Origin: a virus
DNA length: 64,000 nucleotides
Strand: one strand, 5' to 3'
Virus record (IMG/VR): IMGVR_UViG_3300029953_000001
In this document: positions 47,314-54,771 of the stretch, in pieces
Layout: the number at the start of each line of letters is the position of its first letter
How positions within the stretch are numbered: position 1 is the stretch's first letter
Translations under genes and position numbers: made by a program
The notes under the pieces: model-generated
Seen by the model: the letters and a program-made list of their open reading frames with translations, nothing else
What the model was told of the DNA's origin: nothing
The model's database searches: none

Positions 47314-50300
47314 TTATTGAGTCGCGTCGAACTCCTGACGCAACTTCGCCATCAAGTTTTGATCATTCGTCACGTCTACTCGCGTGTAGCCACGGTCGTT
47401 GAAGTAGTCGATGAACTCCTGAGTCAGTATCGGCTCCGGGTGCTCCACGCCATCCACCGTGATTTTGTCTGGTGAGAATACAGCTAAGGTGTCAAACTCC
47501 CCCCTGGTCTCCACCATCCATACACCGTCGAATCCGGCTTTCCGAATATAACGAACAAGGGGTTCAATATAGTCATAACCTGCATCTTCAAGGTCATCAA
47601 TAACCTGTTCCCGAGACTTGAAATATCCTGTTACCGAGTCCAGTTTATCCCCCATGCTATCCAGTAGAATCTGCTGATGCTTCGGGTCACGTGGGTTGAA
47701 TACGTTGTCGCAATCCACTGTGCATTCGTATACGTGGGGTACAGGATTATCCAAAGCAAAGGACTCAGCCAATGATTTGTTCGGTGTGAAGAAAATCAAA
47801 CCATGGTCATTCCATTTCGATTCAAACTCCTTAATCGCATACCCGGTGCCGTGATACATACTAGGGTAAGCAGCGGCGGTCTTCATCTCCCCGACAATAC
47901 GAACCTGATTCGGTTTGAACAGGATGACATCGAACGTCCCGTCTGGGTCTGGCAGGACAACGCTATCGAAACCGTCACGCTTCAACTCTCCAATGGACTT
48001 ATTCTCGTACTCCGCCCAGCCAGCCGGGTTCTGTACGTTGATGTAGCAGCCAAGAATACACTTGCTGGAGTTCGCTCCGGCCTCTCCCTTTTCAATACTG
48101 GCTTTGTCGGATGCAACCCAGAACAATCCTTGGGCACCGTGACTCATATTCACGCGAGTGAAGGGCTCGCGGGTGCCATGGTACACCATCTGGGGCACCT
48201 TGGAGTCGGGGAACGGCTTCGCTGCCGCTTCCTTACCGAACGGGCGGTCAGGTTGAGCCCACAGTGACTTACCCGCTGGCGTCTGCTCGGTGGATGGGAT
48301 GACGGTGTATCCGGTCTGACGTTCTGCATAGACGTACATCGCTGTCGCCAGCCCCTGACGATGATAGGTTGCGGTGATGTCGAGGGACATGGGGTCAAGC
48401 TTCTTGTCCTCACGCTTGGCGAAAGTGACGTAGCCGAGGGGGGTTCCATCCTTCAATGCACGCACGGTGACCATCGGCGTACCAATGTACGACTTGCCGT
48501 GTTCAATCGTTAGCTGGAAATCCTTATACCGTCCATCAGGAGAAACGGCAACCGGGCCGGAGGCGGTCTTCTTTCGTAAATCTAGCTTATAGGGTGAGAC
48601 CATGGGGTATCGCTTGCTCAATTTCTCCCATGCTTTATAAGCATCGGGGGACATCCTCCAGTCTAGGTCGGAGATGAGGTACCTGCGCTTCTGCTTCCGG
48701 GATTCCACAATAAGACGGTCGTACAACATTTGACCTAGACCCGTGCCCTTCCATTCATCTCGGATGATGGCTTTCTTGACTCGCACGGAATCCCACTTGT
48801 CGGCATCGTCTGAACTCAGCCTTCCTGTAGAGTCATAAGCACTCGCCTCCAGAAACCCCGGTGGTGTAGCGTGGGGGTTAGCTTCAGGGTCTCGTGCGTT
48901 GATATCAATTGTAAAGTCCGTGGCTAGTACACTCCACTTTAACTTGGCGAGGTCAGCTTCGCGGTCATTGAATTTGGAGTAACCAAAGTCAGGGCTGGCG
49001 GTCTTCTCCTTGTATTTTTTGAAATCAGAAGGGAGCCACACGATTTTCCAGTGTCTCTCGTACTTGCCCGTCAACTCACACTTCGACTCACCCGGCTTCT
49101 CCACGTGATCGCACACAGTTTCAGCGACCGGTTTCTTGTCGAAGGTGAAGATGATCTTCTCTCCCTTGAGCACGCGAGGACGAGTGCGGAACGCCCAAAA
49201 CTCCCACTGCCCCTCAGGAACCGGCGACCAGAAGTGGTCACGTGCCGACTTAGGCACTTCGATGTAGAAAGCGTAAGGGCCGGTGTAGTTAGCGGCGGCG
49301 GTCTTCACCGGGTCTGTACCTTCCAACTTAATCTGCGATGTATCCCATACCATGTAATGCTTGGTGCCGGGATTGAACTTCAATCCACGACGACGGAACA
49401 CCGAACTCGGTGTCATGATGATGCCGTCAAAGCCCAGAGCACGATACACGTCAGCTACGAACTGTCCGGGCTTACTGATGTTTAACCCCCATACTTCCAG
49501 ACGCTTTGCACCTTCCTCGAACTCCAGTGCGGAGAACGTGGTCTTCTGAATCACGCTGTTGATGAGCACGTCGTATATCTGCTCGACCCATTTCACCTGA
49601 TGCTTCGTCGCGACTGACTCAAGAGCTTGCTTGAACGTCTCGTCCGCTGTGAACGTTGTGCCGCCGCGACTGACCTTCACCGGCTTGTTCAACTCGATGC
49701 GGACACGCTTGATGCTGGGCTCGTTGCCTACAATCTCTTTCTTGGCTTCAGCAAAAGCATCGGCCAGAGCTTCCTTGTACTCCTCGGAAACCTCTCCCTC
49801 TTCTCCATCATGGTCATACTTCATCATCGCAAGGTCGTCTTTGTCATACCATTCATTGAGAATCTTGTCGCGAAGAATCTCAAGGCGACCAGCGAGGTCG
49901 TCGTTGTCCGGGTTGGCATACTGCTTAGCCTCGGTGTAGTCACTGGTGAAGAAGAACGCCTTGCCGTACCAACTGGACTCAGACGCATGTTCGAGCGAGA
50001 ACGCTTCGAACCCCTGTGTCGTCCCATGGAACACATCGGAAATCTGTGCCGCCGACTTCATCGGCGAGGGAATCCAGAAGTCCACCTTCTGCTCGTTGGG
50101 GACTACTCCCTTGCGGAAGTGCAGGATTTCAGACCAGCCTTGGTGATAGGTCTTGCCATCTTGAGGCTCAGCAGCCTCTTCCGGCGACACGTTCGACTGG
50201 CCGAAATGCGTCCACCCAAGTTCTGTGAATGCCTGAATGATACTGTCCCTCGCCACTGCTTGCGTAGTAAGTAAGTCGATGTCATGGAAAGACTCTCCAC

Positions 50301-53300
50301 GTTGTTCGACGCCCCCCACCAGCTTGGTGGAGATGCCCTTGCTTTGCAAATCGCCAATCAACGCCTGAGCGTCTTCCTGTGTGTGCAGGGTAGAGGTCTT
50401 GTTCCACTCGGCATCGCGTAGCTCAATAAACCGCTTGATTTGGTCAGGCCCGACCGGATAGGCGTCGATAATCTGAGACGCGGGGATAGGACTCATGGTC
50501 TTTATCCACTGTCCACGATTACCCCCCTGAGACATCGGGTCGTTATAATCCACTTCCCACTCTTCCTCACCCGGCTTGAAGCGGACGATGGAAATCTTGC
50601 CGCTGCCGGTCTTCTTGTTCAACTCCCAGTCCATACGACCAGCCCAACGGAGAGCATCGAACTCCTCAGTCATGGCGTAGACTTCTCCCTCACCATAACG
50701 CGCACCGCTCTCAGCGACAGCCCAGTTGGATGGCTTGAACCGTTGCAGACCGTTCTTCTTTATCTTAGCCACGTTGGTGGTCTTGGTAACGTGATACAGC
50801 ACTTCGTTGTATCCTTCGCCGGAGGCGGTCATCGCAAGGTCAGGGTACTCACGGTCGAGAAACTCCCTCTGCCAGTGATTGAACTGGTCACGAAGGTGCT
50901 GCTCTTCCGAGATGCCCGACCGCTGCCTGTCCATCTTCTCCGCAAGCTCAGGGTAAAGCTCACGCATGGCAATTTCAGTCTCATCCCGAGTCGGCTTGCG
51001 GTCGGCGACCTTTTCACGCTCCATGATGTCCAACGCAGCCGCGAGGTTTTCCTTGTAGCTGTCAGAGATAACCTTGCACGCAGGGCATGAACCGTTGTAG
51101 GACTCCAAGTCCTCAAAGCGAACACGGTTGCAGTTCTTCTCGTGGGTCATTGCCGCCATCTTGTTCAGGGGCTCCACGCTACGCTCCATTACAGGGAGAC
51201 CCTGTTCGGTGGTTGTGACTACATTGAACCCCAACCGCTCATACCAAGTCTGGAGGTCGAATCCCTCAACCTGTTCACCATCCACCGTTGCCAGCAGGAT
51301 AATGGAGTTCGCTCCATGGGCACGTGCAGCGTCAATGAACTGAGCGACGAGTTGCTTACCCAAGCCCGTACCCCGCTTATCGAGGTCAACACCGACTGAG
51401 CCTAAGGATGCCCAAGGCTCTGCTTCAGACAGCATCATTTCAAGTTCTTCCGGGTCTTCCATCTGAACAGCTTCAGCCCAGCTACGCAGTTCGTCGTAAT
51501 CGTCAAGGATGCGTCCACGCACATAGCCGCCATCAACCTTGATGTCTATCTGGTCGTAGGATGCCAGCTTGGCCGTCTTTACCAACGGTATAAACTTGGA
51601 GTCCCCGGTCACCCCGCCCAATTCTACTGGATACTCCTTAGCCAAGCGATTCCAGATGATAGCGGCGTCCTGCGTCTGAGGGATTCCCTGATATAGTTTG
51701 ACGGCTCCCTTCTTCTGTGCCAGCTTGATGGCTTCCTTGTACAGGAGCAGACCGATGCCACGTTCTCTGAACTCAGCCAGTACCTCGACACCACTAACAA
51801 AGAAGGCTACCTCTTCATCCTTCTGATTGCGAACATGATACGGAGAGAGATTGATGAAGCCTATTCTCTCATCTCCAAGATACGCATCATCGAGGTAGGC
51901 ACTGATGAGAAACCCATAACGAGGGGAACCTGCCACTCTGAAGGTGATGCCTTCTGGTGTGGGGTATTTGGCCGCTGTCTTAGTGTCTGTGGACGCATCG
52001 AATGTATCCACGCGAAGGATGGCGTCAACCGGGATGCCCACACCATACTCAGTGCTGTAGTTGTGAGAGCCGAAGTTTTCGAAAAGCTCAGGGCACTTGC
52101 TGCGGTCAACAACTACCACAGCGTACTGGTCAGTCGGCTTTATATCAACCCGGTTGTTTGTGCTCCGCATCATCACACGAGCAAAATCACGGGCCACACT
52201 TGGGCTAGTGGAGAGATGCACAGTATCGTCGCTCCCCGGCGTGATACCCTGCTGCTCGATGAGACGGGCGTTGTCCACGGAGGTTCCGTGGTAAAGCAAC
52301 TGGGCTGAAGCCAGCTTGAACGTCTGAGCGGCAGTGACATCCTCACCGTTCATCCAGTTATACCAAGCGTCCTCACTCGCGTGGAGAAGGTTGGTGATGT
52401 CCACCACAGGAATCGTCTTGCGACCCACGCGGTGATACGCTTCCAAACGGTGGGCACCGTCAAGGAACTTTCCATCCGCCATGAGGATGGGGTCGAATTC
52501 AAAGCTGGGGTCTTGCTGAAGCATCGCGATGTACTTGGTAACGGCTGCTTCACTCACGGCCCTGTCCATTGTGGCATAAAGAGGCTCAACTGGAACGGAG
52601 CCAGCCTTCACCTTCGGCTCATCCGCGATACCGAAAAGGTTGTTGAATACGTCGGTCTCATCGTATCCCGCACGTTGCAGGAATTCCACGCGGTCGTAGA
52701 CCATATAGGCGATGTCGCCCTGTGTATCGCGAGGCAAGCTGTCGATACCTACGGGTTTGAGGCCAGCAGCGGTCAATGACTTGCGGTACCGCTTGCCTGT
52801 GTCGTAGTCATCTTCATACTTCTCATGAGTTACAGTCGGGTCGGTCTTGATACGCTTCTTCCAGATAGCCTTGGCTCCCGGCTTCAACGCATGGTCGGAG
52901 TACACCGCTTCGAAGCCTTCCTTCTTGGCATACTCGAAGAGATGGCGGTATAGTTCCGAACCAATTCCTTGGCGACGGTAATCCTTGTCCACGGTGATGA
53001 ATCCAATTTCAAGGGCCGAAGGGTCGTTCCAATCTATCTTGGCTGAAACCTGTCCAACCAACTTCAAATCGTGGTAAGCTTCGATGCGATACGAACCCTT
53101 AGCGTTCATCTCCTTATAGCGAGTCTTTGCCGCTGCGGTCTTTGGCTGCACCACACGAATCTGGTCAGGGTGGAACGCTATCCACGCTTCATTCCGGTAC
53201 TGGGCTCCATCGTATCCTTGAGCCTCAAGCTCCGCAGCAATCTCCTTGAAGTTGGGAACACTCGGACTGATGTGCATCGCGTGGAGGTCAGCCGGGTTGT

Positions 53301-54771
53301 TGATGGTCAGGATGGCCTCAATGATGTGACCATTCGGTAGACCCGCGATGATGTCCTCAGCATAGGACTTCTTGACAGTGAACATCGCAGGAGTGTCGAA
53401 CAGGTCGAAGTCGTGCGTCGTGCCATGGTAGGCACGCACGGTCTTAGCCGACGCTTCCTTAGCGTCGATTAGTATCTCGTCTGCAACCGAAGCTGTGATA
53501 CGCTTGTCGCTGGGGTCGTATGTACCCGCGTTGCCAACAGCACTCTTCACCTGATTCGGGCTGAATGCAACCCAGTCATCACGGTCAGCGTTGCCATCCG
53601 ACATGCTGTTGCGAATCACAAGACCATCATGACCCTCCGCTTCAAGATGCTTGCGGAAGTCTTGCCACGAGGGGTAAGAGCGACGGTCGTCCTGAAAGTG
53701 TTCGTACTCTTCAAACTCTGCGGGGTTCTTGATAGACAGCCAGACCGGCTTCACGTGGGCACCGGGCTTGTACTCGTCCCAGTTCTTACCCTGAGTGAAG
53801 CTCTCCGCTACGAACTCCGCATTGCCTTCGTCGTAGTTACCCTGATGCAGGGACTCGGTGGTGAACCATGAGCCCATGGCTCCGCCCCAGTCTGGGTTCT
53901 TGCCATCGGGCTTCGGGGTTGTATCGAACTCATCGAAGTCCTTGGTCGTACCGTGATAGGCACGCAGGGGGTTGCCCTTGGCGTCAACGACCTTCGAGCC
54001 GTTAAACCATGCCTTGAACGCGGGAGTGTTTGGAACCTGATAGGTGAACTCTTTCACAGGCTCAGGTGGGGGGTTGGCTGCTCTGTAAGCACGCCACAAC
54101 TCATTCAGTTCAGTTTCAAGCTCAGCGTTCTCCTGAACAAGGTTGGCAGCTTCCTCCAGCTTCGCCCGGTTATTGAGGTCTTTGAATCCCTCCCGGATAA
54201 TCTTCTGGTTGTCCTGCATCTTCTGAAGGATGACTTCCTGCTGCTCGGTGATGTTCGCATTCTTAGAAGCACACAACGGCTGAACGCTGTGCGGATTTTC
54301 CACAGGCTCGAAGAACCCAACTGGGCCATCAGAGTTTGCTTCTTGGTCGTGGGGTGTGGCGGTCTTATCGTCGGACGAAATCTTCCAGTCCGAACCGTAG
54401 TCCAGACGAATCACGATAGCAGGGATGGTCTTGAAGCCCATCTGCTCTGCCGCCGCAACGCGGTGGTGCCCATCCGACAGCTTGAAGGTCTTGCCATCGG
54501 TCGTGGTGACCAAAACAGCTTCAATCCACTTCTCACGGAGACCCTGTTTCATCTCCTCGACACGTTCGTTCTTGGTGTCCCGGCTGGACTGGGTGTGCTG
54601 AAGACGGTTGATGGGCACGTTTTCATCGGTTACAGAGCAGTCAGCCTTGTAACGGAACTCGTGTAGAATCTGCTTCTCACCGGATTTGTCGTACCCAATG
54701 GAGTACCCCTCGTATTCACCTTCACCGGGGCGGTCTTCAAATTGTTGGGTGCGCGTAGAAAGTTCTGCCAT
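47314..54771 (-). CDS. giant polyvalent protein (2485 aa): 2 ParB-like nucleases, at least 7 ART-PolyVal-like H-motifs, at least 5 GNAT modules, Pol-beta-type nucleotidyltransferase module
   Basis: ParB modules: DGHHRVAAAEQMGFKTIPAIV and FLDGAHRLEAYHRVGRKTIP. H-motifs: PAFKAWFNGSKVVDAKGNPLRAYHGT, RAYHGTTHDF, LLYHGTSVDN, VLYHVTKTTN, VFHGTTQGF, MVYHGTREPF and SMYHGTGYAI. GNATs: YRRQGIGSELYRHL, FRERGIGLLLYKEA, KRGTGLGKQLVAQF, WKGTGLGQMLYDRL and HRQGLATAMYVYA. NTase: LVGGVEQRGESFHDIDLL. Confidence 0.8.
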   Translation of the reverse strand: MAELSTRTQQFEDRPGEGEYEGYSIGYDKSGEKQILHEFRYKADCSVTDENVPINRLQHTQSSRDTKNERVEEMKQGLREKWIEAVLVTTTDGKTFKLSDGHHRVAAAEQMGFKTIPAIVIRLDYGSDWKISSDDKTATPHDQEANSDGPVGFFEPVENPHSVQPLCASKNANITEQQEVILQKMQDNQKIIREGFKDLNNRAKLEEAANLVQENAELETELNELWRAYRAANPPPEPVKEFTYQVPNTPAFKAWFNGSKVVDAKGNPLRAYHGTTKDFDEFDTTPKPDGKNPDWGGAMGSWFTTESLHQGNYDEGNAEFVAESFTQGKNWDEYKPGAHVKPVWLSIKNPAEFEEYEHFQDDRRSYPSWQDFRKHLEAEGHDGLVIRNSMSDGNADRDDWVAFSPNQVKSAVGNAGTYDPSDKRITASVADEILIDAKEASAKTVRAYHGTTHDFDLFDTPAMFTVKKSYAEDIIAGLPNGHIIEAILTINNPADLHAMHISPSVPNFKEIAAELEAQGYDGAQYRNEAWIAFHPDQIRVVQPKTAAAKTRYKEMNAKGSYRIEAYHDLKLVGQVSAKIDWNDPSALEIGFITVDKDYRRQGIGSELYRHLFEYAKKEGFEAVYSDHALKPGAKAIWKKRIKTDPTVTHEKYEDDYDTGKRYRKSLTAAGLKPVGIDSLPRDTQGDIAYMVYDRVEFLQRAGYDETDVFNNLFGIADEPKVKAGSVPVEPLYATMDRAVSEAAVTKYIAMLQQDPSFEFDPILMADGKFLDGAHRLEAYHRVGRKTIPVVDITNLLHASEDAWYNWMNGEDVTAAQTFKLASAQLLYHGTSVDNARLIEQQGITPGSDDTVHLSTSPSVARDFARVMMRSTNNRVDIKPTDQYAVVVVDRSKCPELFENFGSHNYSTEYGVGIPVDAILRVDTFDASTDTKTAAKYPTPEGITFRVAGSPRYGFLISAYLDDAYLGDERIGFINLSPYHVRNQKDEEVAFFVSGVEVLAEFRERGIGLLLYKEAIKLAQKKGAVKLYQGIPQTQDAAIIWNRLAKEYPVELGGVTGDSKFIPLVKTAKLASYDQIDIKVDGGYVRGRILDDYDELRSWAEAVQMEDPEELEMMLSEAEPWASLGSVGVDLDKRGTGLGKQLVAQFIDAARAHGANSIILLATVDGEQVEGFDLQTWYERLGFNVVTTTEQGLPVMERSVEPLNKMAAMTHEKNCNRVRFEDLESYNGSCPACKVISDSYKENLAAALDIMEREKVADRKPTRDETEIAMRELYPELAEKMDRQRSGISEEQHLRDQFNHWQREFLDREYPDLAMTASGEGYNEVLYHVTKTTNVAKIKKNGLQRFKPSNWAVAESGARYGEGEVYAMTEEFDALRWAGRMDWELNKKTGSGKISIVRFKPGEEEWEVDYNDPMSQGGNRGQWIKTMSPIPASQIIDAYPVGPDQIKRFIELRDAEWNKTSTLHTQEDAQALIGDLQSKGISTKLVGGVEQRGESFHDIDLLTTQAVARDSIIQAFTELGWTHFGQSNVSPEEAAEPQDGKTYHQGWSEILHFRKGVVPNEQKVDFWIPSPMKSAAQISDVFHGTTQGFEAFSLEHASESSWYGKAFFFTSDYTEAKQYANPDNDDLAGRLEILRDKILNEWYDKDDLAMMKYDHDGEEGEVSEEYKEALADAFAEAKKEIVGNEPSIKRVRIELNKPVKVSRGGTTFTADETFKQALESVATKHQVKWVEQIYDVLINSVIQKTTFSALEFEEGAKRLEVWGLNISKPGQFVADVYRALGFDGIIMTPSSVFRRRGLKFNPGTKHYMVWDTSQIKLEGTDPVKTAAANYTGPYAFYIEVPKSARDHFWSPVPEGQWEFWAFRTRPRVLKGEKIIFTFDKKPVAETVCDHVEKPGESKCELTGKYERHWKIVWLPSDFKKYKEKTASPDFGYSKFNDREADLAKLKWSVLATDFTIDINARDPEANPHATPPGFLEASAYDSTGRLSSDDADKWDSVRVKKAIIRDEWKGTGLGQMLYDRLIVESRKQKRRYLISDLDWRMSPDAYKAWEKLSKRYPMVSPYKLDLRKKTASGPVAVSPDGRYKDFQLTIEHGKSYIGTPMVTVRALKDGTPLGYVTFAKREDKKLDPMSLDITATYHRQGLATAMYVYAERQTGYTVIPSTEQTPAGKSLWAQPDRPFGKEAAAKPFPDSKVPQMVYHGTREPFTRVNMSHGAQGLFWVASDKASIEKGEAGANSSKCILGCYINVQNPAGWAEYENKSIGELKRDGFDSVVLPDPDGTFDVILFKPNQVRIVGEMKTAAAYPSMYHGTGYAIKEFESKWNDHGLIFFTPNKSLAESFALDNPVPHVYECTVDCDNVFNPRDPKHQQILLDSMGDKLDSVTGYFKSREQVIDDLEDAGYDYIEPLVRYIRKAGFDGVWMVETRGEFDTLAVFSPDKITVDGVEHPEPILTQEFIDYFNDRGYTRVDVTNDQNLMAKLRQEFDATQ

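Follow-up and report, generated by a model that had tools for sequence, protein, structure and literature searches.

The first phage proteins to act in an infected cell are believed to be the polyvalent proteins, and few of their modules have, to our knowledge, been put to the test. MNT antitoxins (HEPN-MNT, type VII; NTP_transf_2) NMPylate HEPN toxins. LnuA and ANT(2'')-Ia (PDB 4wh5, 4xje; PF10706) carry a C-terminal helical substrate domain, MenT and AbiEii-type toxins modify tRNA 3' ends, and the CD-NTase/SMODS synthases of CBASS are two-lobed proteins, about 300 aa long, whose C-lobe is helical. RlaP and the CCA-adding enzymes of phage RNA-repair sets have a Pol-beta fold, and their partners in large phages are RNA ligase, KptA and 2H (PMC7824862). 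Polyvalent proteins are regarded as virion-packaged proteins that are injected with the DNA and cleaved (PMC5512222, PMC9503650). Iyer et al. proposed that the nucleotidyltransferases of polyvalent proteins act on protein substrates, and described the minimal Pol-beta family PF18765 Polbeta in 2017 only from Firmicutes conjugative elements, in which it is usually fused to ArdC-N with type IV secretion genes alongside (PMC5512222).

The locus described here lies in a viral DNA stretch of 64,000 nucleotides (the window, i.e. the whole stretch analysed). Residues 1458-1574 of a 2485-aa protein encoded on its minus strand appear, with a probability of about 0.68, to form a minimal nucleotidyltransferase of the DNA-polymerase-beta-like superfamily that is self-contained, competent for catalysis and part of an uncatalogued sequence family. 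The features are as follows.

47314..54771, minus strand: ORF of the polyvalent protein, 2485 aa, hosting the putative mini-nucleotidyltransferase
50392..50400, minus strand: linker K1458-T-S on the upstream side (K-T-A border motif variant)
50050..50400, minus strand: putative mini-nucleotidyltransferase module, aa 1458-1574 (117 residues)
50272..50319, minus strand: signature VGGVEQRGESFHDIDL, aa 1485-1500
50176..50187, minus strand: aa 1529-1532, S-P-E-E turn that immediately follows strand 3
50074..50085, minus strand: V-D-F-W, aa 1563-1566, strand 5
50047..50058, minus strand: downstream linker K1572-S-A-A

Genomic setting and module borders

The 2485-aa protein had been called polyvalent in the first-pass annotation, and this designation holds, as many unrelated effector domains, ART-PolyVal and GNAT included, are present in one polypeptide. 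It consists of about 17 modules; matches were obtained to ParB_N, five ART-PolyVal modules, four GNAT stretches (four to five GNAT modules), and Tpt1/KptA-like and PARP-like modules, and there are also the mini-nucleotidyltransferase and one basic 100-aa module without family assignment. HEPN gave no match in the polyprotein or its large neighbours. Identical copies of the protein are found on 7 metagenome contigs, with lengths up to 108 kb, and megablast with its gene gave no match. Four neighbouring ORFs are likewise of the polyvalent type, and the best cultured relative for the phage context of the window is Tunturiibacter phage Tunturi_5 (308 kb). By analogy with described polyvalent proteins, the 2485-aa protein is presumably packaged in the virion and delivered. 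Three observations touch on a link to the virion: tail-fibre and virion-structural genes adjoin the ORF cluster, a homologous module is fused to MuF in P0004, and a standalone homologue is located within a tail gene block, between tail-tube and baseplate genes.

The translation of 50050-50400 starts with KTSTLH and ends with PMKSA and comprises the whole module, from linker to linker. Strand 5 and the K-S-A-A linker close the module, and just behind them the next ART-PolyVal module (VFHGTT...) begins. KTA occurs 8 times in the 2485-aa protein (0.85 expected), and linker variants are located at module borders throughout; in the family relative P0003, the homologous module is preceded by K-T-A at a distance of 9 residues. 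The flanking K-[TS]-[AS] linkers point to a module that can be excised, yielding a protein of about 12 kDa.

Motif, conservation and predicted fold

The segment GISTKLVGGVEQRGESFHDIDLLTTQ (aa 1479-1504; nt 50260-50337) contains the hG[GS]x(9-13)[DE]h[DE]h signature reported in the first pass, which reads VGG-x9-DIDL, with V1485-G1486-G1487 as hG[GS] and D1497 and D1499 as the candidate metal-ligand pair. It is the single occurrence of the pattern in the 2485 aa. Only one other stop-to-stop ORF of 150 aa or more in the window carries the pattern, namely a bona fide CCA/poly(A) polymerase gene. The motif by itself is not significant, because 14% of 5000 shuffles of the 2485-aa protein gave at least one match (mean 0.15); it is more than chance because it is conserved in the family and agrees with the predicted fold.

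A search of 1.84 billion representatives yielded 14 relatives of the module (E 8e-8 to 8e-4), and a metagenome scan added 16 more loci. Conservation was counted over 26 family members, i.e. the module and 25 homologues at 27-36% identity. G1486, V1488, D1497, D1499, G1519 and P1530 do not vary. S occupies position 1487 in 24 members and G in two, and R1491 of the module is K in most relatives. Besides the nucleotidyltransferase signature positions, the conserved columns comprise P1530, E1532, W1546 and W1566, the last kept in 25/26. The second and third carboxylates, on which the first-pass claim depended, are thus present and kept across the family; the third has two downstream candidates. 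One is E1532 of the S-P-x-E turn (E in 24/26, D in 1/26), a candidate general base or extra metal ligand, and the other is D1564 of the h-D-h-W strand 5 (D in 20 members, E in five, N in one), a candidate third catalytic carboxylate.

An AlphaFold2 model built from a shallow alignment of 15 sequences has a pLDDT of 88.4 and a pTM of 0.82, with the order a-b-a-b-a-b-b-b; the single-sequence model (pLDDT 62) was too poor for use. The predicted elements run a1-b1-[GG]-a2-b2[DID]-a3-b3-[SPEE turn]-b4-b5[VDFW]. The hG[GS] turn lies between a predicted strand (module residues 25-28) and a helix (30-34), D1497 and D1499 are on predicted strand 2 (40-45), the S-P-E-E turn is a short helix (73-77) and strand 5 covers residues 104-112. 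The alpha-beta-alpha-beta-alpha-beta core of the model is similar to that of solved superfamily members. Pol mu and TdT were the leading Foldseek matches in the PDB (E 9e-4, probability 1.00), and the best-scoring named matches in BFVD include poly(A)-polymerase-head and nucleotidyltransferase proteins. The earlier assignment of a Pol-beta-type nucleotidyltransferase module to this protein is therefore borne out by the conserved motif together with the predicted Pol-beta-like fold and its best structural matches, which are nucleotidyltransferases. A NuoC-like non-enzymatic domain was rejected, since the invariant columns include catalytic signature residues.

Standalone phage-gene homologues are 95-158 aa long, and the module should therefore be able to work alone. 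One of them lies two genes upstream of a polyvalent-type inorganic pyrophosphatase. In the proteins examined with Pfam or BLAST, the neighbours of the module vary (ART-PolyVal, GNAT, ParB, 2H phosphoesterase, MuF); the module is a movable cassette of phage-type polyvalent proteins that also occurs as a solo gene. A fixed domain partner was considered and rejected, as the neighbours differ among these proteins.

Relation to known families

Pfam, PHROGs and the PDB returned only noise for the module alone (HSDR_N, E 0.017; kinesin adaptor, E 0.68). A word-indexed search of 5.8 billion proteins gave no match for the module and 3 matches only for the family profile. No relatives were found by tblastn in 50,697 phage records or by collection scans of IMG/VR and GTDB genomes, and no paralogues inside the window. 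The family has no match in NCBIfam, and its profiles A1 and A3 gave only chance matches in the PDB (Csc2 and the RNA polymerase alpha subunit; no nucleotidyltransferase). The module and 15 family members were also scanned against Pfam at E up to 10, where the sub-threshold matches of the members fall mainly on nucleotidyltransferase families: GrpB (5 members), NTP_transf_2 (3), MTPAP-like (3), NTP_transf_5 (2), ANT(2'') (1, E 0.012) and the Pol-beta palm (1), all of which we take to belong to one Pfam clan. The best E value among members was 0.0086 (NTP_transf_2), below the cut-off. Comparison of A3 by hhalign with single ANT(2'') and KNTase sequences and with a 22-sequence ANT(2'') alignment gave probabilities of 0.8-1.9%, so that a profile-level link is not established, although the comparison with the family alignment (1.9%) pairs DIDL with DIDL. 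Profile comparison around the motif, which had been proposed as a check, thus gave no significant link to any curated nucleotidyltransferase family; the assignment rests on motif conservation and predicted structure. As no curated family or PDB chain matches significantly in Pfam, NCBIfam, PHROGs or the PDB, the module represents an undescribed family within a known superfamily.

Like PF18765 Polbeta and the related NTox45, the module is a minimal Pol-beta-fold nucleotidyltransferase, as predicted, embedded in a mobile element's polyvalent protein, and solo forms exist too. It differs in occurring in phage-type polyvalent proteins with ART-PolyVal, GNAT, ParB, 2H and MuF, and in having five strands, the last of which bears the third acid. 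No PF18765 match was found at E up to 10 in the module and the 15 members scanned, and instead of an ArdC-N fusion and type IV secretion genes, ParB, ART-PolyVal and GNAT domains and tail-fibre/virion neighbours are present. In comparison with LnuA and ANT(2'')-Ia, the module is smaller by about 50 residues, lacks the C-terminal helical domain and is part of a phage polyprotein rather than a resistance gene; neither sequence nor profile similarity to them is significant. The MNT antitoxins are of similar size, and their consensus is nearly the same as the family signature G-S-x-A-[KR]-G...D-L-D-L; three of 15 family members match NTP_transf_2 weakly, but these matches are sub-threshold, there is no HEPN partner and MNT structures are outside the top structural matches. 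MenT proteins are longer (about 190-300 aa) and contain additional elements, and the MenT/AbiEii-type toxins have no sequence similarity to the module, which is acidic. RlaP and the CCA-adding enzymes share the Pol-beta fold, and their partners RNA ligase, KptA and 2H are found in this window or in relatives; these enzymes have no sequence match to the module, are much larger and contain RNA-binding regions. The two lobes, the helical C-lobe and the size of the CD-NTases are not seen in the 117-aa module. A CD-NTase-like role was set aside, there being no second lobe and no SMODS/CD-NTase Pfam match at E up to 10.

Proposed reaction and candidate acceptors

The module probably works as an active enzyme, an Mg-dependent NMP-transferase. 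By analogy with the superfamily, the NTP triphosphate would be held by the G-G turn and R1491, D1497 and D1499 of strand 2 would bind Mg2+ with D1564 of strand 5, and E1532 of the S-P-x-E turn may activate the acceptor hydroxyl; the NMP would be moved onto this hydroxyl with release of pyrophosphate. The module would be one bead of a phage-type polyvalent protein that travels in the virion and reaches the host together with the DNA. The one family member in 26 with N at the third-carboxylate position counts against an active enzyme. It is quite improbable that the module is a structural or binding alpha/beta domain whose G-G...D-x-D pattern is coincidental or a relic.

The most likely acceptor is a hydroxyl of a host macromolecule, either an RNA end or a protein. 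Transfer to an RNA or tRNA 3' end is tentatively proposed, at clearly less than even odds. A Tpt1/KptA-like module is part of the same polypeptide; the relatives P0003 and P0006 have 2H phosphoesterase domains, the distant relative P0016 adjoins a P-loop kinase and a CCA-adding enzyme, and RNA ligase and CCA/poly(A) polymerase genes are encoded in the window. RNA as a direct substrate is disfavoured by the acidity of the module (pI 5.2; family median 5.6) and by its lack of an extra nucleic-acid-binding domain. The low pI would agree with a protein target, i.e. an effector that would NMPylate (AMPylate) Ser, Thr or Tyr of a host protein, which is somewhat unlikely as it stands. The size of the module (about 110 aa) is close to that of the MNT antitoxins, the same polypeptide carries mainly domains classed as protein-modifying by Iyer et al. 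(five ART-PolyVal, four GNAT), and protein targets were predicted for the nucleotidyltransferases of polyvalent proteins (PMC5512222).

A small-molecule enzyme of the LnuA/ANT(2'') kind, inactivating a cationic antibiotic-like compound (an aminoglycoside that blocks phage infection would be an example) or modifying a metabolite, is improbable: the comparison with the ANT(2'') family (1.9%) is not significant, the helical substrate-binding domain is lacking, and polyvalent domains are predicted to target host proteins, nucleic acids and nucleotides rather than antibiotic-like compounds (PMC5512222). The first-pass suggestion of interference with CBASS, Pycsar or Thoeris finds no support. Interference of this sort, through decoy nucleotides or consumption of CBASS, Pycsar, Thoeris or type III CRISPR messengers, is highly improbable, as the module has no second lobe for an acceptor nucleotide, CD-NTase structural matches rank below LnuA, MenT1 and family-X polymerases, and there is no SMODS, CD-NTase or RelA_SpoT Pfam match at E up to 10. 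We know of no Pol-beta-fold enzyme that degrades such messengers. Also speculative, and doubtful at present, is a pre-made virion effector that is released by cuts in the K-T-A linkers and overcomes a host defence within seconds after the DNA has entered. One way would be to NMPylate a tRNA end or an immune protein and so serve as a "portable antitoxin" to counter anticodon or HEPN-type nucleases; the other would be to inactivate, with the GNAT modules, aminoglycoside-like anti-phage compounds from soil bacteria. If the latter were true, the module would be a phage-borne counterpart of antibiotic-resistance enzymes.

The preferred reading, a minimal nucleotidyltransferase acting on a host macromolecule, adds a compact family (about 110 aa) found neither in Pfam, NCBIfam or PHROGs nor in the PDB. 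With it, the range of Pol-beta nucleotidyltransferases widens from the conjugative elements of the 2017 survey (PMC5512222) to phage-type polyvalent proteins. If the K-T-A linkers are cleavage sites, they would explain how one 2485-aa protein gives rise to more than a dozen separate enzymes. The module is small and autonomous with clear catalytic residues and is thus easy to test, and target labelling with it would open one early host-takeover or anti-defence reaction.

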